A DNA stretch of 36,412 nucleotides, taken from a virus (Duplodnaviria > Heunggongvirae > Uroviricota > Caudoviricetes). A program made the translations under genes and the position numbers. Positions 7,740 to 36,412 of this stretch are shown piece by piece. Numbering within the stretch: the first letter of the stretch is position 1; every line of letters begins with the position of its first letter. The notes under the pieces were generated by a model. The model made no database searches. It saw only the letters and a program-made list of their open reading frames with translations, and had not been told where the DNA came from. Location of the stretch: the IMG/VR virus record IMGVR_UViG_2585427969_000016, one strand, 5' to 3'.

Positions 7740-8017
7740 TCAAATAGTGTATTAAATGTACTAAAATGTATCTTTTTATATAAAAAACAAAGTGTTGAAT
7801 TAATTCTCGGCTTTTGTATTTTTTAGATCGTAAACCGATTAGTGTTACCAAGAGTATTCAGTTAATAGGGCTTTAATTTTTTGCTTCCCTGTTTTGGTGG
7901 TTATGTGGTACTGTGTTTTTATACAGTTTTTGAGGTTGCTGAGAAATAGAGAATGATAGAGTTATATGCGAGCCTTAGTTTAATTCGTTGTAATTAGGAT
8001 CGGGTATATCATTCGTG

Positions 8018-8128
8018 CTGTCAGTGGTCCTATACCACTAAGCAAAGCAATAGAATCCTACGAATTATTGTTTAAATAGTAACATTGGCAATTATAACGG
8101 CAGTATCTGTGTTTTGTCTGTCAGTGGT
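8018..8128. promoter_or_regulatory. Two copies of CTGTCAGTGGT exactly 100 bp apart in the AT-rich leader of the cargo operon; first copy sits in a hairpin AGTGGT-N5-ACCACT (8023..8039)
   Basis: Exact 11-bp direct repeat at 8018..8028 and 8118..8128 in a 500-bp non-coding region. Confidence 0.3.
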
Positions 8129-8240
8129 TACATCGAGAGTATGTGATTTGCATTACATAACTAGTTGATGTTCCTTAGTTGTAGATAGAAAGTATTCGAT
8201 TTATTATAAGAGTACAAAAATTTATGCTAAGGATACTAGA

Positions 8241-8432
8241 ATGGAGTGGATTACACATATCATCACTTTCTTTGTCGGACTGGGAGCGGGTTGGTCGATT
8301 CGTGTCGTGTTTTCATCTAGAAAGCAAATTGGTAATTCCAGCGTGAACTCAAACAATCATACAGTTACTCAAACTGGTAACAGTGTTACAAATGGAAGTA
8401 TTGTTGGCGGTAATCAGGATAGGTCACATTAA
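8241..8432 (+). CDS. Cargo gene 1: small membrane protein (N-terminal TM helix, Asn/Ser/Thr/Gly-rich tail)
   Basis: ATG with AAGGA Shine-Dalgarno; hydrophobic segment ITHIITFFVGLGAGWSIRVVF; low-GC DNA. Confidence 0.55.
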   Translation: MEWITHIITFFVGLGAGWSIRVVFSSRKQIGNSSVNSNNHTVTQTGNSVTNGSIVGGNQDRSH

Positions 8433-8443
8433 GAGGTGTTGGT

Positions 8444-9007
8444 GTGTCTATCGAACAGTCAGGAAATACCGTAACAAATGGCAACATAATTTCTGGTGAT
8501 CAGACTAATCATATATTCAATTATCCTGTTAAAGGAACTAACCGGGAGATACAGAAACTTTATGAGTGTTTGAAGAGAGGTGATATAGGGGAAGCGGTTC
8601 CGGGGTTTTGTGCTGAACTAGAGCATTATATGTCCCTTCAGCCTGATATTGATGTTCGGGGGTTAGACGCTAAATTACTCGAGAGTAATAGAAAAGATTT
8701 GTTGTTTTTAGCTAAGCAGATGAAGGAAAAAGCAACAAAAGCCATAATGCGTCGCCAGACGTCAAAAACTGCACAAAGAATATTTGTAATAATTTTAGAT
8801 CAAATTCATTTTGATTTTATAACGAAAGTAACACCACTTATAGAAGCGGATAGCTCCAGAGTGATTGTTGATGAGAAAATCGCTTCAATAATTGATGAAT
8901 TATATTCGTCTTTGGGAGAGAACTTGCTAGAGCTAACAGCAAAAGATCTCTTGGGATTACTATTTTTTCTGGGTGGCAATTGCCATATAAGGTGGGATAA
9001 ATGCTAA
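8444..9007 (+). CDS. Cargo gene 2: helical protein of unknown function (GTG start), possible effector/coupling component
   Basis: GTG start 5 nt after strong AAGAGGTG Shine-Dalgarno; N-terminus repeats the GN(S/T)VTNG motif of gene 1; stop overlaps the gene 3 start. Confidence 0.6.
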   Translation: MSIEQSGNTVTNGNIISGDQTNHIFNYPVKGTNREIQKLYECLKRGDIGEAVPGFCAELEHYMSLQPDIDVRGLDAKLLESNRKDLLFLAKQMKEKATKAIMRRQTSKTAQRIFVIILDQIHFDFITKVTPLIEADSSRVIVDEKIASIIDELYSSLGENLLELTAKDLLGLLFFLGGNCHIRWDKC

Positions 9008-9501
9008 TTTACCATCCAGCATATGATGCATATCATTGTTTATTCAGAATGATTGCTCTTATAGACCATGTAAATGAAATTGAGGTAGATAAGGCCAGGA
9101 TTTTGGACTTCTATCTGCTATTTCCTGCTTTGGTATCTGAAATTAGAATGCCTCATAATTATTCTTCAATGAAGAAAGAAGCGAAGAAGTATTCTAATAT
9201 ATATCGGGATCCTATTAATGTTAGATCTACATTCAGAGATATGTATGAAATTCAAATGGCAGCAATAAGATGTCTTGCAGCTACTGGGTTGGTTGAGATG
9301 GATTGTCTTGAGAAAAACATTATAAAGAGAACAGATAAGTCTGTTCCAGATGGCTTATTACTTTCTATTAATAATTTTATTAATACGAATAAAATTATTA
9401 ATACATTTATCATAGATACACTATCTAAATTCCATTTGGTTGGAAAAGATGGTTTAAAAGATAGAACGAAGTTAATGGAGTTTAGATATGACTATTCTTA
9501 A
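9001..9501 (+). CDS. Cargo gene 3: small helical protein, candidate middle component
   Basis: AGGTGG Shine-Dalgarno; 7-nt overlap with gene 2 and 14-nt overlap with gene 4 (translational coupling). Confidence 0.6.
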   Translation: MLIYHPAYDAYHCLFRMIALIDHVNEIEVDKARILDFYLLFPALVSEIRMPHNYSSMKKEAKKYSNIYRDPINVRSTFRDMYEIQMAAIRCLAATGLVEMDCLEKNIIKRTDKSVPDGLLLSINNFINTNKIINTFIIDTLSKFHLVGKDGLKDRTKLMEFRYDYS

Positions 9502-11425
9502 TCCATCTTTTTTTGTTAGTAAATTAAAAGTTTTCCAAGCTGGGCATGAAGCATTTAGCTGTGTTTTCCATAAAGGGGTAAATGTAATAAGGGGGCGAAA
9601 TAGCTCTGGCAAAACTACTGTTATGGATCTTTTAGCATTTTCACTTGGTGCTGAAAATATTAGCTTGAAACCAACAGCTCTTTTATGTTCATTTACCATG
9701 GTTGAAGTGCTTTTGAATAATAATCTTGCCTGTTTTAAGCGGGAGATAAGTTCAGAATCCATGCGGCCGTTGAGTATTTTTTGGGGCTCGATGGATAAAG
9801 CTCTTAACTCATCACCGAGTCAGTGGCAAACTTATCCTTTTAAGCGTTCAGAAAAATCACTGAGTTTTTCTCAGGTAATCCTAAATGCTTTGGATATGCC
9901 TCTAGCTCAAGGAGAGGGTGCTTCAATTTTAACAATGCATCAAATCCTACGTGTATTATATGCAGATCAGCCATCTCTTCATAGTCCTATATTTAGGAAC
10001 GATAATTTTGATAGAGCTCTAACACGAGAGACTATTGGTGATTATTTATGTGGTATATTTGATGACAAACTTTATAGCTCTTTGATTAGGCTTAAACAGG
10101 TTGATGCTGAACTTTCGACAAAAATTGTTGAGCTGAAAAGCATATTTAAAGTTCTTGGACGCTCTGGGCAATCGCAGCATGTAAGTTTTATTGACGATAA
10201 AATAAAAGAGCTAAGAGAGAAGAAAGAAAAGATCAATGGAGAGCTTATCTCTCTCAAAGAGAGTAATAACTCTTCTGTTAATGATAAAAATGCTGATAAA
10301 ACTAAAACTAACAACCTTCGAAAAAATTTAAATAAAGCGAAGGAAGAAGAAGTAAAAAATATTGACAGTATCCATATGTTAGAAATGGAGATAGCTGACT
10401 CTGAAATGTTCATTAATGAGTTAGAATCCAGATTGCGCTCTCTTAATGAATCAAGTATTGCCAGAGACTATTTTAGCAACGTTAAATTTCAATTTTGTCC
10501 CAGTTGTTTAAGTGAGTTGAATATTTCCTCTGAAAATGAGTGCTCATTATGTAAAAATCACGCGCCAGAGGGTAGTGATGCTCCTCAATTATTAAGGATG
10601 AAAAATGAGATTTCTATCCAATTAAAAGAATCCAGAGATCTTCTTGAGCATAATTATGTAAAACTGAGAGAGCTTAAGAGCCAATCTCCTGCTTTAAAGC
10701 AAAAAGTGCGAGATTTAATTCGTGAATATGAAGAAGTCTCTAAGGTTTGGGAAAATGCCTATGAAATAGAGTTTGAAACTCTTACTAAGGCTCTGGGACG
10801 TGTTGAAGAAGAAATTAAACAGGCTTGTGAATTACAAAAACTTAGTGATGTAATATCTGATTTGCAAAAAGATCGTGATAGTCTGCAGTCAGAGAAGGAG
10901 AGATTGTCCTCTTTAATTGAATCTTTGGAGAGTAAAGAGGAATATAGGAAGAAGGATATTTCTAAAACTATAGAAAACATTATGAAAAGACTTCTTAAAA
11001 AAGATCTTCCATTGCAGACTGAATTTATTGATCCTAGAAAAGTTAATTTTAGCTTTGCCGATAATACTGTTTATGTAAATGGGTCTAAGTATTTTTCAGA
11101 AAGTTCAGCAGTTGTATTAAGACATCTCTTTCATTTAGCATTGTTAACTGCAAGTATTGAAAAAAAATACATGAGATTACCTCGTTTCCTAATGCTTGAT
11201 GGAATTGACGATGGTGGAATGGAGAAAGAGCGCAGTCACAATCTGCAGAAAATAATAGTACAAGAAACTCAATCGTATCAATATGATTTTCAAATAATTT
11301 ATGCGACATCGGAGATTAATCCAGAATATGAAAATACCGATTTGATTGTTGGTCGATATTTTAATCCAGATGATAAATCATTAAAGATAAATTATACCGC
11401 TCTTGATAAAGATTTATTGAACTAA
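9488..11425 (+). CDS. Cargo gene 4: SMC/Rad50-like ABC ATPase with coiled-coil insert and CxxC..CxxC hook
   Basis: Walker A GRNSSGKTT near N-terminus; Walker B/D-loop FLMLDGIDDGG near C-terminus; about 300 aa of K/E/L-rich heptad-like sequence between them with CPSC..CSLC at residues 337-355. Confidence 0.8.
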   Translation: MTILNPSFFVSKLKVFQAGHEAFSCVFHKGVNVIRGRNSSGKTTVMDLLAFSLGAENISLKPTALLCSFTMVEVLLNNNLACFKREISSESMRPLSIFWGSMDKALNSSPSQWQTYPFKRSEKSLSFSQVILNALDMPLAQGEGASILTMHQILRVLYADQPSLHSPIFRNDNFDRALTRETIGDYLCGIFDDKLYSSLIRLKQVDAELSTKIVELKSIFKVLGRSGQSQHVSFIDDKIKELREKKEKINGELISLKESNNSSVNDKNADKTKTNNLRKNLNKAKEEEVKNIDSIHMLEMEIADSEMFINELESRLRSLNESSIARDYFSNVKFQFCPSCLSELNISSENECSLCKNHAPEGSDAPQLLRMKNEISIQLKESRDLLEHNYVKLRELKSQSPALKQKVRDLIREYEEVSKVWENAYEIEFETLTKALGRVEEEIKQACELQKLSDVISDLQKDRDSLQSEKERLSSLIESLESKEEYRKKDISKTIENIMKRLLKKDLPLQTEFIDPRKVNFSFADNTVYVNGSKYFSESSAVVLRHLFHLALLTASIEKKYMRLPRFLMLDGIDDGGMEKERSHNLQKIIVQETQSYQYDFQIIYATSEINPEYENTDLIVGRYFNPDDKSLKINYTALDKDLLN

Positions 11426-17553: not shown

Positions 17554-18063
17554 ATGATGACGCTGATTATTCCGCGAAAGGAGGCTCCTGTATCCGGTGA
17601 GGGTACGGTGGTCATCCCGCAACCGGCAGGCGACGAGCCGGTGATTAAAAACACGTTCTTTTTTCCCGATATCGACCCGAAGCGCGTCCGGGAACGTATG
17701 CGCCTTGAGCAGACCGTCGCCCACGCCCGTCTGCGTGAGGCCATCAAGTCAGGCATGGCGGAAACAAATGCGGAGCTGTACGAGTACCGCGAACAGAAAA
17801 TTGCCGCCGGTTTTACGCGTCTGGCGGACGTTCCGGCGGACGACATCGACGGTGAAAGTATCAAAGTTTTTTACTACGAGCGCGCCGTGTGTGCGATGGC
17901 GACCGCGTCGCTTTATGAGCGTTATCGCGGCGTGGATGCCAGTGCGAAAGGAGACAAGAAGGCCGACAGCATTGACAGCACCATTGATGAACTGTGGCGG
18001 GATATGCGCTGGGCGGTGGCGCGTATCCAGGACAAGCCGCGCTGCATCGTGAGTCAAATCTGA
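17554..18063 (+). CDS. L: Head completion protein L (169 aa from the MMTLIIP start)
   Basis: Synteny and length as P2 gpL. Confidence 0.88.
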   Translation: MMTLIIPRKEAPVSGEGTVVIPQPAGDEPVIKNTFFFPDIDPKRVRERMRLEQTVAHARLREAIKSGMAETNAELYEYREQKIAAGFTRLADVPADDIDGESIKVFYYERAVCAMATASLYERYRGVDASAKGDKKADSIDSTIDELWRDMRWAVARIQDKPRCIVSQI

Positions 18064-20476: not shown

Positions 20477-20927
20477 GTTTAAGCGTTTTGAAGACCGGCT
20501 GACCGGACTTATTGAATCGCTGTCACCGTCAGGGCGTCGGCGACTGGCGATAGATATTGCGAAGAAACTGCGCCAGCGCCAGCAGCAGCGAATTAAATTA
20601 CAAAAAGGCCCGGATGGTACGCCGTATGTACCGAGAAAAAAACAGCCAGTGCGAAATAAGAAAGGGCGGATAAAGCGGGAAATGTTTGCGAAATTACGCA
20701 CAAACCGATTTATGAAAGCAACAGGTAGCGAGAGTGCGGCTGTGGTGGAGTTTGCCAGCGGAGTACAACGAATTGCGAGAGTACATCAATTAGGGCTTAG
20801 GGATAAGCCGGGGCGTAATAGTGCTGTGGTGGAATATCCTGTTCGTGAGTTATTAGGTTTTGACAAGGAATCTATACAATTGATAGAAAAGGAGTTATTA
20901 GTGATTCTATCGAAAGATGTTATATGA
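20469..20927 (+). CDS. S: Tail completion protein S; its last codons run into the AT-rich cargo island
   Basis: Synteny and length as P2 gpS. Confidence 0.85.
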   Translation: MNEFKRFEDRLTGLIESLSPSGRRRLAIDIAKKLRQRQQQRIKLQKGPDGTPYVPRKKQPVRNKKGRIKREMFAKLRTNRFMKATGSESAAVVEFASGVQRIARVHQLGLRDKPGRNSAVVEYPVRELLGFDKESIQLIEKELLVILSKDVI

Positions 20928-21445
20928 GATGGGTGTTTGTGGATAAAAAGTTTTCCATTTTGAGAAAAAGAGTAAAGCATTCTCAAAAGAAAGTTATGGA
21001 TTGTATTATTGCTGACCATAATGCTGATGTATGTGTGTTATGCGGGAGTTCTGACGATATTACTCGTGAGCACATTATTCCTCAGTGGGCCTTTGAGTCA
21101 AATGCTGAAAAACTTTTAATTAATAAAAAGAATAATCAGTCAACTCATTACATCAAAGCCACTGTACCAGCATGCAGAGTGTGCAATTCTGATTTGCTGG
21201 GAGCGTTTGAGTATAACCTGAAGAAATTTCTTACGGAAAAGAGGGGCGATGAGTTAACAGATTATGAATATGATTGCATCATATGGTGGTTGCAATACAT
21301 GGGCTTTAAGTTGCAATTAATGGATTTACGGACCCGCTTTCTCAGGTATAAAGGGGGGATTATATCCCTTTCCTTGCAAACTTCCCGGTTGCAATGTTTT
21401 GGGGGAATGTCGATACGACACCGGAGGATGTCTCCAGGATTATAA
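20924..21445 (+). CDS. Cargo HNH-family endonuclease (P2 orf30 position); probably frame-disrupted at a G6 run (21353..21358)
   Basis: HNH motif CVLCG..TREHIIPQW..CRVCN; ATGA overlap with the S stop; AT-rich; ORF tail after the G-run looks non-native. Confidence 0.65.
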   Translation: MRWVFVDKKFSILRKRVKHSQKKVMDCIIADHNADVCVLCGSSDDITREHIIPQWAFESNAEKLLINKKNNQSTHYIKATVPACRVCNSDLLGAFEYNLKKFLTEKRGDELTDYEYDCIIWWLQYMGFKLQLMDLRTRFLRYKGGIISLSLQTSRLQCFGGMSIRHRRMSPGL

Positions 21446-24181: not shown

Positions 24182-26500
24182 ATGAGCACAAAATTCAGAA
24201 CCGTTATCACCACTGCCGGTGCAGCAAAGCTGGCAGCGGCAACCGCGCCGGGAGGGCGGAAGGTCAACATTACCACGATGGCCGTAGGGGATGGCGGTGG
24301 TAAATTGCCTGTCCCGGATGCCGGACAGACCGGACTTATTCACGAAGTCTGGCGACATACGCTGAACAAAATCAGCCAGGACAAACGAAACAGTAATTAT
24401 ATTATCGCAGAGCTGGTTATTCCGCCGGAGGTGGGCGGTTTCTGGATGCGTGAGCTTGGCCTGTACGATGATGCGGGAACGTTAATTGCCGTGGCGAACA
24501 TGGCCGAAAGTTATAAGCCAGCTCTTGCCGAAGGCTCAGGGCGTTCGCAGACCTGTCGCATGGTCATCATCGTCAGCAGTGTGGCCTCAGTGGCGCTGAC
24601 CATTGACACCACAACGGTGATGGCGACGCAGGATTACGTTGATGACAAAATTGCAGAGCATGAACAGTCACGACGTCACCCGGACGCCTCGCTGACCGCA
24701 AAAGGTTTTACTCAGTTAAGCAATGCGACCAACAGCACGTCTGAAACACTGGCCGCAACGCCGAAAGCGGTTAAGGCCGCATATGACCTGGCTAACGGGA
24801 AATACACTGCGCAGGATGCCACCACAGCGCGAAAAGGCCTTGTCCAGCTCAGTAGCGCCACCAACAGCACGTCTGAAACGCTCGCCGCAACACCAAAAGC
24901 GGTAAAGGCAGCATATGACCTTGCTAACGGGAAATACACTGCACAGGACGCCACCACAGCGCGAAAAGGTCTTGTCCAGCTCAGTAGCGCCACCAACAGC
25001 GATTCTGAAACGCTTGCCGCAACGCCAAAGGCGGTTAAGACAGCGTATGACCTTGCTAACGGGAAATACACTGCACAGGATGCCACCACAGCGCGAAAAG
25101 GTCTTGTCCAGCTCAGTAGCGCCACCAACAGTGATTCTGAAACGCTTGCCGCAACACCAAAAGCGGTGAAGTCTGCCTATGACAATGCTGAAAAACGTCT
25201 TCAGAAAGATCAGAACGGTGCGGATATTCCGGGAAAGGATACCTTCACGAAAAATATCGGTGCCTGTCGTGCTTATAGCGGCGCTTTGAGCACTGAAGCC
25301 GGAAACTGGACAACCGCTCAGTTTATTGAATGGCTGGATTCCCGTGGTGCATTTAATCATCCGTACTGGATGTGCAAAGGCTCCTGGTCATATGCAAATA
25401 ACAAAATCATTACGGATACCGGATGTGGTGATATCAACCTGGCTGGTTGTGTCGTCGAGGTCATGGGAACAAAATCTGCAATCACTATCCGAGTGACCAC
25501 GCCGACAACATCAAGCGGTGGCGGTACAACCAGCGCGCAATTCACTTACATTAATCATGGGGACGGCTACTCCCCCGGCTGGCGTCGTGACTGGAATCGT
25601 CAGGGCGACTCAATGACCGGAACGATTAATCAGGATGGCGGAAGCCAGAATGCCTATATGTCTACGGCCTTATGTTCAGGCACCAGAGGCGGCAAAAAAT
25701 ATCTCAGAAAGTTTCGTGGTGGAGAAGGAGATACTATCTGGCATGAAACAGTACAGGGCGAGGTAATTCGCTGGGCGACAGGTAATACTGATGCTCGGGA
25801 AGAATTATCACTCAGCTCTGTTTATGGTCTTCGTTCAAGAGGTGAAATTACATCGCTCAGTGCTAATGGTCTGCGCGTTGCTTATGGCAATTATGGATTC
25901 TTTATCAGGAATGATGGCGGCAGCACATATTTAATGCTGACGGCCTCTGGCGATAAATTTGGGACATGGAACGGCTTAAGACCGCTGACTATCAATAACG
26001 CCAATGGCGGAGTGTCAATGGGGCATGGCCTGAGTGTTACAGGTGATATTGTCTCAAGTACCAAAGTACGTGCCGGTAGCGGGAAAAAGTTCACGGTCAG
26101 CAGCAGCAATACATCCACGAAGGAAGCCGCATTCAATTTGTGGGGAAACTCAAGTCGTCCTGTGGTGGCTGAATTAGGTGATGATGCAGGCTGGCATTTT
26201 TACAGTCAGAGAAATACAGATAACAGCATCACTTTTGCTGTTAACGGTCAGGTATCACCATCTAACTATGGCAACTTTGATTCACGCTATGTCCGGGATA
26301 TCCGGCTTGGTGGTGCTGCCACATACAAACCTGCGAACAATGGCATGACATGGACACATCAGGCACCGTCCGGGTGTGTATATTCTGGCATTATTGTTCA
26401 GGATACCGGCTCAAACTCTGCCGATAACATTGGTGGCGTATATTACAGACCGGTGCAGAAATACATTAACGGGACATGGTATAACGTGGCACAGGTATAA
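24182..26500 (+). CDS. H: Tail fibre protein H (772 aa) with conserved N-terminus, four internal 44-aa repeats and a variable C-terminal receptor-binding part
   Basis: N-terminus MSTKFRTVITTAGAAKLAAATAPG as recalled for P2 gpH; about 100 aa longer than P2 H. Confidence 0.92.
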   Translation: MSTKFRTVITTAGAAKLAAATAPGGRKVNITTMAVGDGGGKLPVPDAGQTGLIHEVWRHTLNKISQDKRNSNYIIAELVIPPEVGGFWMRELGLYDDAGTLIAVANMAESYKPALAEGSGRSQTCRMVIIVSSVASVALTIDTTTVMATQDYVDDKIAEHEQSRRHPDASLTAKGFTQLSNATNSTSETLAATPKAVKAAYDLANGKYTAQDATTARKGLVQLSSATNSTSETLAATPKAVKAAYDLANGKYTAQDATTARKGLVQLSSATNSDSETLAATPKAVKTAYDLANGKYTAQDATTARKGLVQLSSATNSDSETLAATPKAVKSAYDNAEKRLQKDQNGADIPGKDTFTKNIGACRAYSGALSTEAGNWTTAQFIEWLDSRGAFNHPYWMCKGSWSYANNKIITDTGCGDINLAGCVVEVMGTKSAITIRVTTPTTSSGGGTTSAQFTYINHGDGYSPGWRRDWNRQGDSMTGTINQDGGSQNAYMSTALCSGTRGGKKYLRKFRGGEGDTIWHETVQGEVIRWATGNTDAREELSLSSVYGLRSRGEITSLSANGLRVAYGNYGFFIRNDGGSTYLMLTASGDKFGTWNGLRPLTINNANGGVSMGHGLSVTGDIVSSTKVRAGSGKKFTVSSSNTSTKEAAFNLWGNSSRPVVAELGDDAGWHFYSQRNTDNSITFAVNGQVSPSNYGNFDSRYVRDIRLGGAATYKPANNGMTWTHQAPSGCVYSGIIVQDTGSNSADNIGGVYYRPVQKYINGTWYNVAQV
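24701..25228 (+). repeat. Four tandem 132-bp (44-codon) repeats inside H, each encoding ..KGLVQLSSATNS(T/D)SETLAATPKAVKAAYDLANGKYTAQDATTAR
   Basis: Period of 132 nt read directly from the sequence, with a few synonymous and missense differences between copies. Confidence 0.9.
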
Positions 26501-26503
26501 TTT

Positions 26504-27031
26504 ATGCAGCATTTGATAAATATAACCGCGGGTAATCCAAAAACGGTTGAACAATATCAATTGACAAAGGACTTTGATGTTGTCTGGTTTTTTACAGAAG
26601 ATGGTAAGAACTGGTACGAAGAACAAAAGTATTTTGCTGATGACACGATAAAAATAGCGTACGACAAGGATAATATTATCCGCTATATGGAAAAAGATGT
26701 GACAGCTATCAGACCAGATGGATTAAGTGTGGTTGAAGTGGCGGATATTACTGCTAACCGACGGGCGGACATTTCAGGGAACTGGATGTTTAAGGACGGC
26801 AAAGTGATTAAACGCATTTATACGGCAGAGGAATTGCAGCAGCAGGCAGAAAACCGGAAAGCCAGACTTCTTGCAGATGCTGAATCCGTGATTTTGCCGC
26901 TGGAGCGCGCGGTCAGACTGAACATGGCAACAGATGAGGAGCGTAGCCGACTGGATGCATGGGAGCGTTACAGCGTTCTGGTCAGTCGTGTGGATCCTGC
27001 AAATCCTGAATGGCCGGAAATGCCGCAATAA
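26504..27031 (+). CDS. G: Tail fibre assembly chaperone G (175 aa)
   Basis: Synteny and length as P2 gpG. Confidence 0.9.
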
Positions 27032-27252
27032 GTTGTATGATCTCTGGAGTGAGCAAACGTATCTATGGCACAGAGTAAAGCCTAATCTGACAGGCCGCTC
27101 TGTGTCTGGAGTAGATTTTAGTAAAGCATTATTTTATTAGTGCAAATTCTAATCAATACATTTTATGTATATGATATCCTGCAGACTTTAATGACTTGGT
27201 TTAGGCTAACCAGATAACACTGAAGGAATATTTTTGATAATTAAGGTGCGGT

Positions 27253-27846
27253 ATGTTTACTAAGCGACGATTAAAAAATATTAACTGGGAGGCAAGTTCA
27301 GTGATTCTTGCTATGGTTCTCTTTGTTGGAAATATATTTTATACAAATCATCGTGATGATATAAGCATGGAGGCTGAGAGGGACAGTATCAGAACAATGT
27401 TTGCATATGAAATCGCTAATAACCATCGCGCTCTCACTTTTCTTGATAAAACGAGACATATTGGCTTTGACGAAAATTCGGAGCATTTTGTTGGCGAGCC
27501 TTTTGCCATTAATGTCAAATCATTAGGGGGGCCTCGCTTACAGATTGCATTAAACCAGACTGATAAAGTGTTTAAATCCTACTTCAGCGAATTAAGTAAG
27601 CTTGATAAAGAGGATGTTACTCTTCTTATGGACTATTACCATGAGCAAAGCATCCTGCTGGAGCGTGTAAAATCTACGTTACAGAAGATGAAAAGTGGTA
27701 ATGATATTAAAGTTGATATTGATGGTTACTTATTAGAAGAACACTTCATGAATGAGCTTAATCTTTCTAATATTTTGCTTAAACGCTATAGCCATTTGTT
27801 GTCACAACACGCTAAAGAACATAAAACAAAAGATTTACATAATTGA
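27253..27846 (+). CDS. Cargo gene at the P2 Z/fun position: 197-aa protein with one N-terminal TM helix and a helical cytoplasmic domain; function unknown
   Basis: AAGGTG Shine-Dalgarno; hydrophobic SSVILAMVLFVGNIFY; AT-rich island between G and FI. Confidence 0.65.
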   Translation: MFTKRRLKNINWEASSVILAMVLFVGNIFYTNHRDDISMEAERDSIRTMFAYEIANNHRALTFLDKTRHIGFDENSEHFVGEPFAINVKSLGGPRLQIALNQTDKVFKSYFSELSKLDKEDVTLLMDYYHEQSILLERVKSTLQKMKSGNDIKVDIDGYLLEEHFMNELNLSNILLKRYSHLLSQHAKEHKTKDLHN

Positions 27847-28047
27847 TAATCTGCTAATGGTTATTCATGGGGTAACTATGTTTTATATGTAATCCAACTC
27901 AGATGAATTATTGATTCTGGATAATAACCGCAGAACGGCATATACCCTGACAGGCAAATGTCCGCTTCTTGTTCAAAGCAGACTGTCAGATTTGACAGAA
28001 TTTTGGTTACGTAATTTGTCAGTTGGAAACAGAGAGAGTACAAATCA

Positions 28048-28080
28048 AGGCAGGCAAGCTGATTGCCTGCCTTTTCTTTA
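28048..28080 (+). terminator. Rho-independent terminator-like hairpin (AAGGCAGGCAA-GCTGA-TTGCCTGCCTT followed by TTCTTTA)
   Basis: 11-bp GC-rich stem with T-rich tail, read from sequence. Confidence 0.55.
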
Positions 28081-28082
28081 TC

Positions 28083-28092
28083 TGTTGTTTCA
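28083..28092. promoter_or_regulatory. TGTTGTTTCA motif about 90 bp upstream of FI; candidate late promoter P_F element
   Basis: Third occurrence of the TGTTGT(G/T)TCA class, positioned about where a -55 element would lie. Confidence 0.35.
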
Positions 28093-28175
28093 TCCACTGA
28101 CCAGCCAGGTCAAATAGCGTCTCATGCACTGCCCAACAGAAAATAGTTGCACCCATTAACCACGGAGTTAAACGG

Positions 28176-29366
28176 ATGAGTGACTATCATCACGGCGTGC
28201 AGGTGCTGGAGATTAACGACGGCACCCGCGTCATTTCCACCGTATCCACGGCCATTGTCGGCATGGTCTGCACGGCCAGCGATGCGGATGCGGAAACCTT
28301 CCCCCTCAATAAACCTGTGCTGATTACCAATGTGCAGAGCGCAATTGCAAAGGCCGGTAAAAAAGGCACGCTGGCAGCGTCGTTACAGGCCATCGCTGAC
28401 CAGTCAAAACCGGTCACCGTTGTTGTGCGCGTGGAAGACGGCACCGGCGACGACGAAGAAACGAAACTCGCGCAGACCGTTTCCAATATCATCGGCACCA
28501 CCGACGAAAACGGTCAGTACACCGGACTGAAAGCCCTGCTGGCGGCGGAGTCGGTAACCGGTGTTAAACCGCGTATTCTCGGCGTGCCGGGACTGGATAC
28601 CAAAGAGGTGGCTGTTGCACTGGCATCAGTCTGTCAGAAGCTGCGCGCTTTCGGGTATATCAGCGCATGGGGCTGTAAAACCATTTCCGAGGTGAAAGCC
28701 TGCCGCCAGAATTTCAGCCAGCGTGAGCTGATGGTCATCTGGCCGGATTTCCTCGCATGGGATACGGTCACCAGTACCACCGCCACCGCGTATGCCACCG
28801 CCCGTGCACTGGGGCTGCGTGCCAAAATCGACCAGGAGCAGGGCTGGCATAAAACGCTGTCCAATGTCGGGGTGAACGGTGTTACCGGCATCAGCGCCTC
28901 TGTATTCTGGGATTTGCAGGAGTCCGGCACCGATGCTGACCTGCTTAATGAGTCAGGCGTCACTACGCTGATTCGCCGCGACGGTTTCCGCTTCTGGGGT
29001 AACCGTACCTGCTCTGATGACCCGCTGTTCCTCTTTGAAAACTACACCCGCACCGCGCAGGTGCTGGCCGACACGATGGCTGAGGCGCACATGTGGGCGG
29101 TGGACAAGCCCATCACCGCAACGCTGATTCGCGACATCGTTGACGGCATCAATGCCAAATTCCGTGAGCTGAAAACAAACGGCTATATCGTGGATGCGAC
29201 CTGCTGGTTCAGCGAAGAATCCAACGATGCGGAAACCCTCAAGGCCGGAAAACTGTATATCGACTACGACTATACCCCGGTGCCTCCTCTCGAAAACCTG
29301 ACCCTGCGCCAGCGTATTACCGATAAATACCTGGCAAATCTGGTCACCTCGGTTAACAGCAATTAA
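28176..29366 (+). CDS. FI: Tail sheath protein FI (396 aa)
   Basis: Synteny and length. Confidence 0.93.
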   Translation: MSDYHHGVQVLEINDGTRVISTVSTAIVGMVCTASDADAETFPLNKPVLITNVQSAIAKAGKKGTLAASLQAIADQSKPVTVVVRVEDGTGDDEETKLAQTVSNIIGTTDENGQYTGLKALLAAESVTGVKPRILGVPGLDTKEVAVALASVCQKLRAFGYISAWGCKTISEVKACRQNFSQRELMVIWPDFLAWDTVTSTTATAYATARALGLRAKIDQEQGWHKTLSNVGVNGVTGISASVFWDLQESGTDADLLNESGVTTLIRRDGFRFWGNRTCSDDPLFLFENYTRTAQVLADTMAEAHMWAVDKPITATLIRDIVDGINAKFRELKTNGYIVDATCWFSEESNDAETLKAGKLYIDYDYTPVPPLENLTLRQRITDKYLANLVTSVNSN

Positions 29367-35050: not shown

Positions 35051-36412
35051 TCACTTACCGTGGGGGTTACGCGTGGTTTCCCCGGAGAAATTACGCATCA
35101 GGAGCGCGTAATTTAGCTCAAGATCCTGCGGGACCGGGAGCCACACAGTATAACCATCGCCTGGTGCGACCGGCATAGCTTCACCTTTGGCGTTTTCCAT
35201 GTGCTCAAGGGTAAAGTTAATGTTGCCTTGCGGCGTCATCAGCTCAAGGCTGTCACCAACGGAGAATTTATTTTTCACCGCTACCGCCGCGAGGTCGCCC
35301 TTGCGCTCACCGGTAAACTCACCAACAAACTGCTGGCGGTCAGAAACTGAATAACCGTATTCGTAGTTCTGATAATCGTCGTGAGTATGACGACGCAGGA
35401 AACCTTCGGTATAGCCACGATGCGCCAGACCTTCCAGAGTTTCCAGCAGGCTGGTATCGAATGGTTTTCCCGCAGCTGCGTCATCGATAGCTTTACGGTA
35501 AACCTGCGCGGTGCGTGCGCAATAGTAGAAAGATTTGGTACGGCCTTCGATTTTCAGCGAATGCACTCCCATTTTGGTCAGGCGTTCTACATGGGCGATG
35601 GCGCGCAGATCTTTCGAGTTCATGATGTAAGTGCCGTGCTCATCTTCAAACGCGGTCATATACTCGCCCGGACGCTGGGCCTCTTCGATCATAAACACTT
35701 TGTCGGTTGGTGCGCCGATACCCAGCGTCGGCTCAACATTTTGCACCGGAATCGGCTCGTACTTGTGTACGATGTTGCCAACGTCATCTTCTTTCCCTTC
35801 CTGGACGTTGTATTCCCAGCGGCAGGCGTTGGTGCAGGTGCCCTGGTTCGGGTCGCGCTTGTTGATATAGCCAGAGAGCAGGCAGCGACCGGAGTAGGCC
35901 ATGCACAGCGCGCCGTGAACGAAGATCTCTACCTCCATATCCGGCACCTGATTGCGGATCTCTTCAATCTCTTCCAGCGACAGCTCGCGAGAGAGGATCA
36001 CGCGGGTCAGGCCCATTTGCTGCCAGAATTTCACCGTCGCCCAGTTCACGGCGTTAGCCTGTACCGAGAGATGGATCGGCATTTCAGGGAAGTGCTCACG
36101 CACCAGCATAATCAGCCCTGGATCGGACATAATCAGCGCATCCGGCCCCATTTCCACCACCGGTTTCAGGTCACGGATAAAGGTTTTCAGCTTGGCGTTG
36201 TGCGGTGCAATGTTGACCACGACATAAAACTTTTTCCCCAGCGCGTGGGCTTCATTGATGCCGAGCTGGAGATTTTCGTGGTTAAATTCGTTGTTGCGCA
36301 CACGCAGGGAGTAACGCGGCTGGCCCGCATAAACAGCATCTGCGCCATAAGCGAAAGCGTAACGCATATTTTTCAGCGTTCCCGCCGGGGAAAGGAGTTC
36401 CGGTTTAAACAT
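35051..36412 (-). CDS. yegQ: U32-family peptidase-like protein YegQ (TrhP, tRNA hydroxylation), complete; start codon at the window edge
   Basis: 453-aa ORF; length and sequence match my recollection of E. coli YegQ. Confidence 0.88.
   Translation of the reverse strand: MFKPELLSPAGTLKNMRYAFAYGADAVYAGQPRYSLRVRNNEFNHENLQLGINEAHALGKKFYVVVNIAPHNAKLKTFIRDLKPVVEMGPDALIMSDPGLIMLVREHFPEMPIHLSVQANAVNWATVKFWQQMGLTRVILSRELSLEEIEEIRNQVPDMEVEIFVHGALCMAYSGRCLLSGYINKRDPNQGTCTNACRWEYNVQEGKEDDVGNIVHKYEPIPVQNVEPTLGIGAPTDKVFMIEEAQRPGEYMTAFEDEHGTYIMNSKDLRAIAHVERLTKMGVHSLKIEGRTKSFYYCARTAQVYRKAIDDAAAGKPFDTSLLETLEGLAHRGYTEGFLRRHTHDDYQNYEYGYSVSDRQQFVGEFTGERKGDLAAVAVKNKFSVGDSLELMTPQGNINFTLEHMENAKGEAMPVAPGDGYTVWLPVPQDLELNYALLMRNFSGETTRNPHGK

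Follow-up and report, generated by a model that had tools for sequence, protein, structure and literature searches.

The Z/fun locus of phage P2 lies between the tail fibre assembly gene G and the tail sheath gene FI, and the P2 record (NC_001895) places fun(Z) in this gap with the annotation that it blocks phage T5. GenBank records AJ512676-AJ512685 (2003-04), which describe the Z regions of natural P2 isolates (Nilsson, Karlsson & Haggard-Ljungquist, Mol Biol Evol 2004), annotate 113-bp left and 91-bp right inverted repeats. A review that summarises the 2004 paper reports that inverted repeats lie on both sides of fun, in the genomes of phages as well as of bacteria, and allow exchange in a site-specific manner (PMC8987985). 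The literature treats the site as a defence hotspot (PMC13586616, PMC8987985), and P2 hotspots hold non-defence cargo too (PMC9122126). We analysed the corresponding region of a 36,412-nucleotide stretch of viral DNA (IMG/VR record IMGVR_UViG_2585427969_000016; the whole stretch is called the window here). Positions 27032-28175 of the window are the Z/fun cargo slot of a P2-like prophage. The gene in this slot, open reading frame (ORF) 197, or ORF197, lies at 27253-27846 on the plus strand and encodes a protein of 197 amino acids, for which we tentatively propose an envelope-level exclusion role.

None of the deposited Z-region records AJ512676-AJ512685 carries ORF197. The NCBI label 'lysogenic conversion protein', the source of which was not traced, resembles the wording of these records. 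The locus shares with P2 Z/fun its position between G and FI, its repeats, and an AT-rich foreign ORF with its own putative promoter. It differs from P2 Z/fun in that its cargo is unrelated to Fun(Z) and its left arm is partly degenerate.

Prophage membrane-anchored superinfection-exclusion (Sie) proteins, for example T4 Sp/Imm, P22 SieA, HK97 gp15, and lactococcal Sie2009, are a second described system close to ORF197. Like them, ORF197 is a small single-gene prophage moron with a predicted N-terminal membrane anchor, located in or beside tail genes, and it would likewise act without cytoplasmic sensing. Against the described Sie families, ORF197 gave no Pfam or PHROG functional match and no PDB sequence match, and a four-helix bundle in the periplasm with an invariant GEPFA loop, as predicted for ORF197, is not known among the folds of Sie proteins. 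The periplasmic domains of chemoreceptors and kinases (Tar/Tsr, MCP2201, PcaY, and LytS-N) are a third point of likeness, as these have, like the predicted structure of ORF197, a membrane helix that runs on into helix 1 of an antiparallel four-helix bundle of ~150 residues facing the periplasm.

ORF197 occupies the Z/fun slot of a P2-like prophage

The whole window is a complete P2-like prophage with host DNA at either end, where 1-900 encodes a yegS-like kinase and 35051-36412 a U32 peptidase. The gene order around the slot is H, G, gap, FI, and FII. Tail fibre gene H (24182-26500) is followed by G (26504-27031, plus strand; PF02413, E=1.2e-34; labelled GpG in related phages) as the left backbone neighbour, and the right backbone neighbour FI (28176-29366, plus strand; PF04984, PF17482, and PF22671) is followed by the tube gene FII. 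The G-FI gap is AT-rich and 1.14 kb long, with a G+C fraction across 27000-28050 of 0.32-0.38 versus 0.52-0.60 in the tail genes on either side. The original prediction had placed this island at the Z/fun position and called the site a variable defence locus. Both points agree with our results: the P2 record has the T5-blocking fun(Z) at this position, and in 69 loci, which we gathered from phage records and IMG/VR contigs by the presence of the right-hand core, the slot held 36 cargo classes of 0.7-5.9 kb, in keeping with the hotspot literature. We are highly confident in the anatomy of the locus and its noncoding DNA as read below. For the combined statement, which joins this anatomy to an envelope-level exclusion role of ORF197, we lean slightly in favour.

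ORF197 is the product of a conserved gene in a tiny protein family

ORF197 starts with an ATG preceded by a Shine-Dalgarno sequence, AAGGTG, at 27243-27248, and its ratio of nonsynonymous to synonymous substitution rates (dN/dS) was 0.05-0.24 over six homologues, measured versus those in five other loci. Judged from these sequence measures, ORF197 is a real gene under strong purifying selection. Together with the G+C contrast, they confirm the initial description of an AT-rich island with one convincing gene. The N-terminal NWEASSV..AM.LF..N segment is conserved in the family, indicating that the 197-amino-acid form is correct. A 181-amino-acid product from an internal start (phage SIDE7, cluster P0002; window 27253-27300) was rejected due to this conservation of the NWEASSV segment. 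Furthermore, R47, E53, and N57 are conserved across the entire family, and the GEPFA motif is invariant in 17 close homologues.

We ran the remote homology and structure searches that the original prediction had suggested, and these recovered a family but no annotated or specific relative. ORF197 matched PHROG 3829 (E=5e-137), a PHROG of unknown function. No family was matched in Pfam or NCBIfam, and PADLOC-DB 2.0 gave 0 families at E <= 10. The best BLASTP match to P2 Fun(Z) (528 amino acids) had E = 3.4, which we read as no similarity, and neither a PDB sequence search nor a BFVD structure search found anything specific. As expected from the sequence alone, we detected no catalytic signature in Pfam, PADLOC, NCBIfam, or the structural model. 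ORF197 was also missing from every defence catalogue that we checked. The family is tiny, with 38 clusters in 5.8 billion proteins. An exhaustive profile scan of 1.84 billion proteins gave only 29 representative clusters, and thus no annotated distant relative of ORF197 was found. All named family members belong to the Enterobacterales.

Within E. coli, the island was present in 201 of 1015 complete genomes having the conserved flank, making ORF197 a common cargo at ~1 in 5 E. coli P2-like Z loci in complete genomes. Homologues, close and distant, were always lone genes with unrelated neighbours, and we observed them in eight mobile-element contexts: the P2 Z slot of E. coli; P4-like satellites of Pantoea and Kosakonia, in the slot directly after the primase (primase-att slot); a lambdoid prophage of Salmonella, at its end and next to a methylase gene; a siphophage tail module, as a moron on the opposite strand; an integrative and conjugative element (ICE); an IncFII plasmid; an AlpA island; and a SIR2-HerA island. 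Homologues were not widespread outside such accessory slots of mobile elements; a wide spread there would have spoken against the initial reading of the gene. The primase-side slot of P4 satellites is a minor satellite hotspot, and defence genes are reported to be hardly ever common to P2 and P4 at an identity cutoff of >85% (PMC13586616). Because the satellite homologues from Pantoea and Kosakonia (L008, 5402-6001, and L012, 6001-6591; 62% identity) occupy the P4-like primase-att slot, the ORF197 family is present in both P2 and P4 hotspots. These satellite homologues are without the A and B repeat units described below.

ORF197 is predicted to be a membrane-anchored periplasmic helical bundle

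The sole hydrophobic segment of ORF197 spans residues 14-32 and is borderline, with a Kyte-Doolittle score of 1.54. Its N-terminal flank is rich in K and R in 23 of 24 aligned family members, the exception being the N-terminally truncated P0048, and its C-terminal flank is acidic or neutral in the closest relatives. Due to these flanking charges, an N-in, C-out topology is predicted. Three distant family members contain a C-terminal C-x4-C pair, which from sequence fits an oxidising compartment and a periplasmic location. With a deeper alignment, AlphaFold2 produced five concordant models with a predicted local distance difference test (pLDDT) score of 78.3. The model has a helix at residues 12-66 that includes the membrane span, a low-confidence loop at 67-87 containing GEPFA, and then three long helices; the membrane helix passes without a break into the first helix of a four-helix bundle. 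These analyses predict an inner-membrane N-terminal anchor with ~10 cytoplasmic residues and a periplasmic four-helix bundle of ~165 residues. An N-terminal transmembrane helix followed by a helical domain had been proposed from the sequence, and prediction upholds both parts, with a borderline segment at 14-32 and the remainder of the protein predicted to be helical. The natural structural neighbours of ORF197 are the periplasmic sensor bundles of chemoreceptors and kinases. A search for a periplasmic sensor domain of the four-helix-bundle type 4HB_MCP gave neither a profile match nor a specific structural match in ORF197. We also considered an i-spanin reading of ORF197, which was rejected since a partner lipoprotein is missing, the prophage has its lysis genes at another place, and plasmids and ICEs carry homologues too.

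ORF197 may act at the cell envelope

With ~10 cytoplasmic residues, a periplasmic bundle, and carriage as a single gene by many mobile elements, ORF197 is most simply read as an envelope-level exclusion or conversion factor. We propose at somewhat less than an even chance that ORF197 is an envelope-level exclusion factor. The product would be a stand-alone lysogenic-conversion factor at the cell envelope, excluding or interfering with incoming competitors. A discrete ~0.84-kb cassette (27120-27956) lies at the centre of a long imperfect palindrome made by the left and right inverted repeats. In this model, its one gene would be expressed in the lysogen from its own promoter, with the product anchored in the inner membrane by an N-terminal helix, its short basic N-terminus in the cytoplasm and its bundle in the periplasm. 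ORF197 might keep phage DNA from entering the cell or interfere with a step in the periplasm or inner membrane, and would not sense infection in the cytoplasm. Late transcripts from G could also read through ORF197, as the only terminator lies downstream at 28047-28081. Downstream, the right repeat marks the boundary of the cassette and slot, the terminator insulates the tail-sheath operon, and the Ogr-activated P_F late promoter precedes FI. A periplasm-facing factor of this type would escape screens tuned to cytoplasmic immune systems.

Several points weigh against this proposal. ORF197 has no counterpart among the models of PADLOC, Pfam, or NCBIfam and no relationship to Fun(Z). The topology is predicted from a borderline hydrophobic segment (Kyte-Doolittle 1.54), the structural matches to four-helix bundles are of a generic kind (best Foldseek E = 0.2), and the candidate cassette promoter is a guess. 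Lysogen data also bear on the proposal. Phages AC1 and SIDE7 of Rousset et al. 2022 carry ORF197 at 96-99% identity. Of the four lysogens tested in that study, AC1 alone gave protection, which extended to lambda and LF82_P8; the AC1 phenotype was reproduced when a TIR system of the other hotspot was cloned. Since a different locus reproduced this phenotype, no protection can be credited to ORF197 against any of eight phages (lambda, T4, P1, 186, CLB_P2, LF82_P8, AL505_P2, and T7). The SIDE7 outcome is inferred from the silence of Rousset et al. 2022, and T5-like phages were outside that panel; with these limits, the AC1 and SIDE7 data mildly weaken a defence role for ORF197.

This lack of an anti-phage phenotype attributed to ORF197 in lysogens suits a conversion factor outside phage defence, which could be an orphan immunity protein (against a bacteriocin that acts in the periplasm, a type VI secretion system effector, or a tailocin) or a decoy or modulator of a host envelope sensor. 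Such immunity proteins are usually periplasmic and anchored in the inner membrane, and the structural neighbours of ORF197 are periplasmic four-helix-bundle sensor domains. One homologue is found a few kilobases from an Rhs toxin/immunity cluster, and as noted above, non-defence cargo is also carried in P2 hotspots (PMC9122126). However, no cognate toxin is linked to ORF197 in any homologue context, the fold similarity to sensor domains is generic, and the cargo of the slot and of repeat-bounded cassettes elsewhere is often defence-like. We regard a role outside phage defence as a rather unlikely alternative.

The membrane segment itself could instead be the active part of ORF197. If so, ORF197 would be an abortive-infection effector whose conserved membrane helix oligomerises into a pore or damages the membrane upon infection, killing the cell before phage release. 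The segment is unusually conserved and contains the polar residues E13, S16, and N27, single-pass membrane effectors are common in defence systems (PMC9122126), and distant homologues adjoin SIR2-HerA. An effector of this type is difficult to reconcile with a gene that is always alone, with no partner sensor, and with a protein that has ~10 predicted cytoplasmic residues, which leaves little for sensing infection. In addition, the bulk of ORF197 is a well-packed bundle of soluble type, and protection by AC1 or SIDE7 lysogens is not attributed to ORF197. We consider an abortive-infection effector improbable and retain an envelope-level exclusion factor as the tentative reading.

The ORF197 cassette is bounded by the inverted repeats of the P2 Z region

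We located both inverted repeats of the P2 Z region in the window. The left repeat (27004-27116) overlaps the end of G and is 113 bp long as in the AJ5126xx records. The corresponding repeat of EC58 aligns to 27004-27104, and this region is conserved in 36 cargo classes. The right repeat (27960-28050) is 91 bp long and contains the dyad CTGTCAGATTTGACAG and TTGTCAG (28015-28021). The EC58 right repeat aligns to 27960-28047, with conservation in 59 phage records and all 36 cargo classes. Between the repeats, the cassette interior (27120-27956, plus strand) consists of a promoter region, ORF197, and a 3' tail, and homology to P2 and Wphi breaks at both of its edges, with the alignment following the backbone to ~27107-27119 and again from ~27957. 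Nearly identical breakpoints are shared by the 69 loci with 36 unrelated cargos.

The DNA immediately beside the cargo forms two 36-bp arms. The left arm (27084-27119) is composed of AATCTGACAG and a degenerate A unit, with GGCCGC...GTAGAT in place of GTCCGC...GCGGAC. By a by-eye count it has 7/36 mismatches to the family consensus, and it fails the unit scan at <=4 mismatches. The right arm (27957-27992) is composed of AAT, the B unit GTCCGCTTCTTGTTCAAAGCAGAC (27960-27983), and TGTCAGATT. This B unit has 2 mismatches and was the sole unit match in the 36-kb window, with 0 matches in shuffles. Across the 69-locus set, the left arm reads AATCTGACAGTCCGCTCTGTGCCAGGAGCGGACATT and the right arm, in reverse complement, AATCTGACAGTCTGCTTTGAGCGAGAAGCGGACATT. 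Arm-to-arm agreement was ~0.9-1.0 at most of positions 1-24 (with four fixed mismatch positions), 0.4-0.9 at positions 25-36, and at background past position 36. Covariation between the inner ends of the left and right arms within a locus was rejected by a permutation test (0.679 observed versus 0.675 permuted), which argues against selection on pairing of the two arms. The result is more in line with conservation of each arm for its own sequence, perhaps as a protein-binding site.

Upstream of ORF197, a candidate cassette promoter is inferred from the TATATGATAT block at 27165-27179 (plus strand), with TATGAT at 27170-27175 as its putative -10 element. The TATGAT block is conserved with the upstream region of a Pantoea cassette, and Nilsson-type records put a -35/-10 pair at the same relative position. 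A consensus promoter scan flagged instead ATAACA-16-GATAAT at 27214-27241. Expression of ORF197 in the lysogen is thus probably driven by a promoter within the cassette.

In the left repeat, we also observed a possible second hairpin at 27067-27108, GGCACAGAG...CTCTGTG(C/T)C, with a 9-bp stem and a 22-nucleotide loop. This hairpin overlaps the A unit and is conserved among P2-like phages.

The same repeat units bound cassettes outside P2-like phages

Two further ORF197 cassettes, in a Pantoea island (L011) and on an Enterobacter plasmid (L013), have the cassette interior in common with the window at ~72-74% identity. Both retain the inner 27-30 bp of both arms and have unrelated outer flanks. 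These two cassettes are 93.7% identical to each other (synonymous divergence, dS, 0.12), and homology between them ends at the arms, as it does with the window. An empty-site search for the plasmid cassette found merely fragments of the insertion sequences (IS) IS91 and IS66 on either side. The A unit can be written as AATGTCCGCT-TTGTGCCAGA-AGCGGACATT and the B unit as AATGTCCGCT-TCTCGCTCAA-AGCAGACATT, and each inner arm is itself palindromic. In P2, removal of [A-cargo-B] would fuse AATCTGACA to TGTCAGATT, giving an 18-bp perfect palindrome.

We then scanned one genome per species (596 Gb) with a motif of ~14 fixed bases, which was too degenerate, so that most of the 120 returned loci are chance matches. 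We retained the 21 loci whose unsearched upstream bases fit the arm and followed up 19 of these, all from Enterobacterales, with L154 and L169 dropped. None of the 19 loci is beside P2 G or FI, and one is beside a P4 primase fragment. We read the flanks of five of these loci by eye and, with the exception of L170, saw ordinary chromosomal genes there, for example for aldo-keto reductases, a LysR regulator, and DapE. The cargo of the repeat-bounded loci includes SIR2_2, HEPN/Toprim, a zeta-like kinase, ASCH, and a ParA-like ATPase. Among the right arms paired by score, some are weak, for example where the cargo is DAP epimerase or DUF1989, and these could be false pairs. In several loci on the chromosomes of several Enterobacterales (L193, L160, L215, L202, and L185), we observed tandem arrays in which one [A-cargo-B] is followed after ~15 nucleotides by another; neither an adjoining recombinase nor marker genes of P2 or P4 were present. 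An A...B pair also encloses a distant homologue of ORF197 in an ICE of Salmonella. Genes for IS110-family transposases are found in or beside the repeat-bounded cassettes of distant ORF197 homologues (L102, 8117-9355; L103, 4640-5662). Elements of the IS110 family often target palindromic repeats.

These observations raise the possibility, which we hold only tentatively, that the A and B units mark the ends of cassettes in an integron-like system of Enterobacterales that is without a recombinase, ORF197 being one such cassette. Integron attC sites and the pdif sites of Acinetobacter are likewise short imperfect palindromes that bound cargo, here in inverted orientation, and in those systems the same cargo is also found in different replicons with homology ending at the sites, as well as in tandem arrays. 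In contrast to an integron cassette with one attC, the cassettes described here have two units each, and no integron integrase is encoded nearby or in the slot. Moreover, the units have no RYYYAAC/GTTRRRY core beyond AAY...RTT, and they are unlike the XerC/D dif consensus. Such a system may shuttle single genes and small defence systems among the P2 Z slot, plasmids, ICEs, and chromosomal tandem arrays. The 2004 work, as summarised in PMC8987985, already proposed site-specific exchange at these repeats. According to recent hotspot papers, it is not yet known how the defence genes of P2 and P4 hotspots are exchanged (PMC13586616). If the cassette system is real and not described elsewhere, the arrays, the cargo spectrum, and the sharing of a single cassette family by P2, plasmids, and chromosomal islands would be new. 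The repeat units outside phages provide a concrete, testable handle on how hotspots swap defence genes.

The flanking repeats could alternatively be mere conserved backbone that permits homologous swaps of cargo between prophages, rather than cassette ends. That no recombinase is encoded in the slot and that the left and right arms do not covary are in keeping with this idea, and homologous exchange between P2 relatives is well documented in the literature. Conserved backbone does not readily account for 36 unrelated cargos whose two ends each fall at the same positions to within a few nucleotides, or for the inner 27-30 bp that accompany the ORF197 cassette into the plasmid and the Pantoea island, with homology stopping at the arms. 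It also fits poorly with the finding that, in many Enterobacterales, these units enclose further cassettes, in part arranged in tandem, that are flanked by ordinary genes of the chromosome. We find it rather unlikely that the repeats are backbone only.

The DNA downstream of ORF197 consists of assigned cassette and phage elements

The noncoding stretch from ORF197 to FI (27847-28175) is 329 bp long, and the original prediction had regarded it as more than a late promoter needs and as a possible small RNA or regulatory element. We found instead that each part corresponds to a recognisable element. The 3' untranslated tail of the cassette (27847-27956, plus strand) is conserved with the Pantoea and Enterobacter cassettes (L011 and L013), and its folding was unexceptional versus shuffles (z = -0.79). 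From 27960 onward, the DNA is conserved phage backbone and not cargo.

Repeated TGACAG/CTGTCA elements had been noted in this stretch and are present, with TGACAG at 27948 and 27993 and CTGTCA at 27983. These 3 hexamers in 329 bp, versus ~0.35 expected from the window density of 39 per 36.4 kb, represent a modest enrichment. The near-perfect dyad reported among them also exists, as CTGTCA-GATT-TGACAG, but at 27983-27998, ~18 nucleotides to the left of its reported position of ~28001..28016.

The predicted terminator hairpin was likewise found downstream of the gene. It forms an intrinsic terminator at 28047-28081 (plus strand), with an 11-bp stem, a 5-nucleotide loop, and a T-run: the hairpin, AAGGCAGGCAA-GCTGA-TTGCCTGCCTT, is at 28047-28073 and is followed by TTCTTTATCT. 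Both hairpin and T-run were retained in 27/27 sequence variants, with folding free energies (dG) of -9 to -20 kcal/mol. As we found no terminator between G and ORF197, this terminator ends transcription of G, including late read-through, and of the cargo.

P2 late promoters, which depend on Ogr or delta (Christie and Calendar), have the consensus TGT-N12-ACA as a partial dyad near -55. In the window, the Ogr/activator binding site of the late promoter P_F is at 28083-28108 (plus strand) and maps to the P2 activator site at 17555-17583 of NC_001895. It has TGT at 28086-88, N12, and CCA at 28101-03, and its centre is at ~-56 from the mapped start. The P_F transcription start (28150-28152) and the FI leader, with GGAG at 28164-28167, occupy 28150-28175 (plus strand). 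The start maps to the annotated P2 start, 24-26 nucleotides upstream of the FI ATG. By sequence comparison, the DNA after ORF197 is thus cassette tail, right repeat, terminator, and P_F promoter with the FI leader, with every segment assigned. The slot, repeats, terminator, and late promoter are textbook P2 biology, so the noncoding half of the locus is explained.

We weighed whether 27960-28081 might still encode a small RNA or a cis-regulatory RNA that ends at the terminator. The ~90 bp before this strong terminator are more conserved in P2-like phages than the adjoining promoter, and TTGACA at 27992-27997 and a TAATTT/TAAATT element are present upstream of the hairpin. However, these -35/-10-like elements are just 14 nucleotides apart, and no promoter was called there. 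The fold of 27960-28085 had z = -2.75, which is probably due largely to the terminator hairpin, and when the right repeat was folded as a consensus, compensatory pairs were absent outside the terminator. An Rfam 15 scan found no family, with a best match of 22.8 bits versus a gathering score of 50 and all matches eukaryotic or at chance level. The stretch is already explained as an inverted-repeat arm with its partner to the left of the cargo, and the P2-like phages EC45, PSP3, and vB_YpM_22 are entirely without the right repeat yet keep the promoter. With all 329 bp assigned, Rfam and folding null, and the right repeat missing from some P2-like phages, a small RNA is unsupported, and we consider it highly improbable.

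A minus-strand ORF at 28040-28156 (38-45 amino acids, FIG00643520), which is present in some phage records, was also rejected. It overlaps the terminator and P_F, and a 1-nucleotide indel breaks its frame among relatives, suggesting that it is probably spurious.

Other variable regions of the prophage

The other hotspot of this prophage lies between the replication gene A and the portal gene Q (7800-11425) and is AT-rich, with a G+C fraction of 0.31-0.37. It holds a three-gene system of ABC-3C/Lamassu type, with genes at 8444-9007 (PF20285, CTD9), 9001-9501 (PF20291, MC5), and 9488-11425 (PADLOC LmuB, E=4.5e-47). A third AT-rich islet at 20924-21445 (G+C fraction, 0.38) encodes a 173-amino-acid protein with no Pfam or PADLOC match and has no A or B repeat units in its flanks. 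We take this islet to be roughly at the position of P2 orf30. Finally, the tail fibre gene H (24182-26500) encodes three to four tandem repeats of ~37 residues, …TAQDATTARKGLVQLSSATNS.SETLAATPKAVK.AYDLANGKY….

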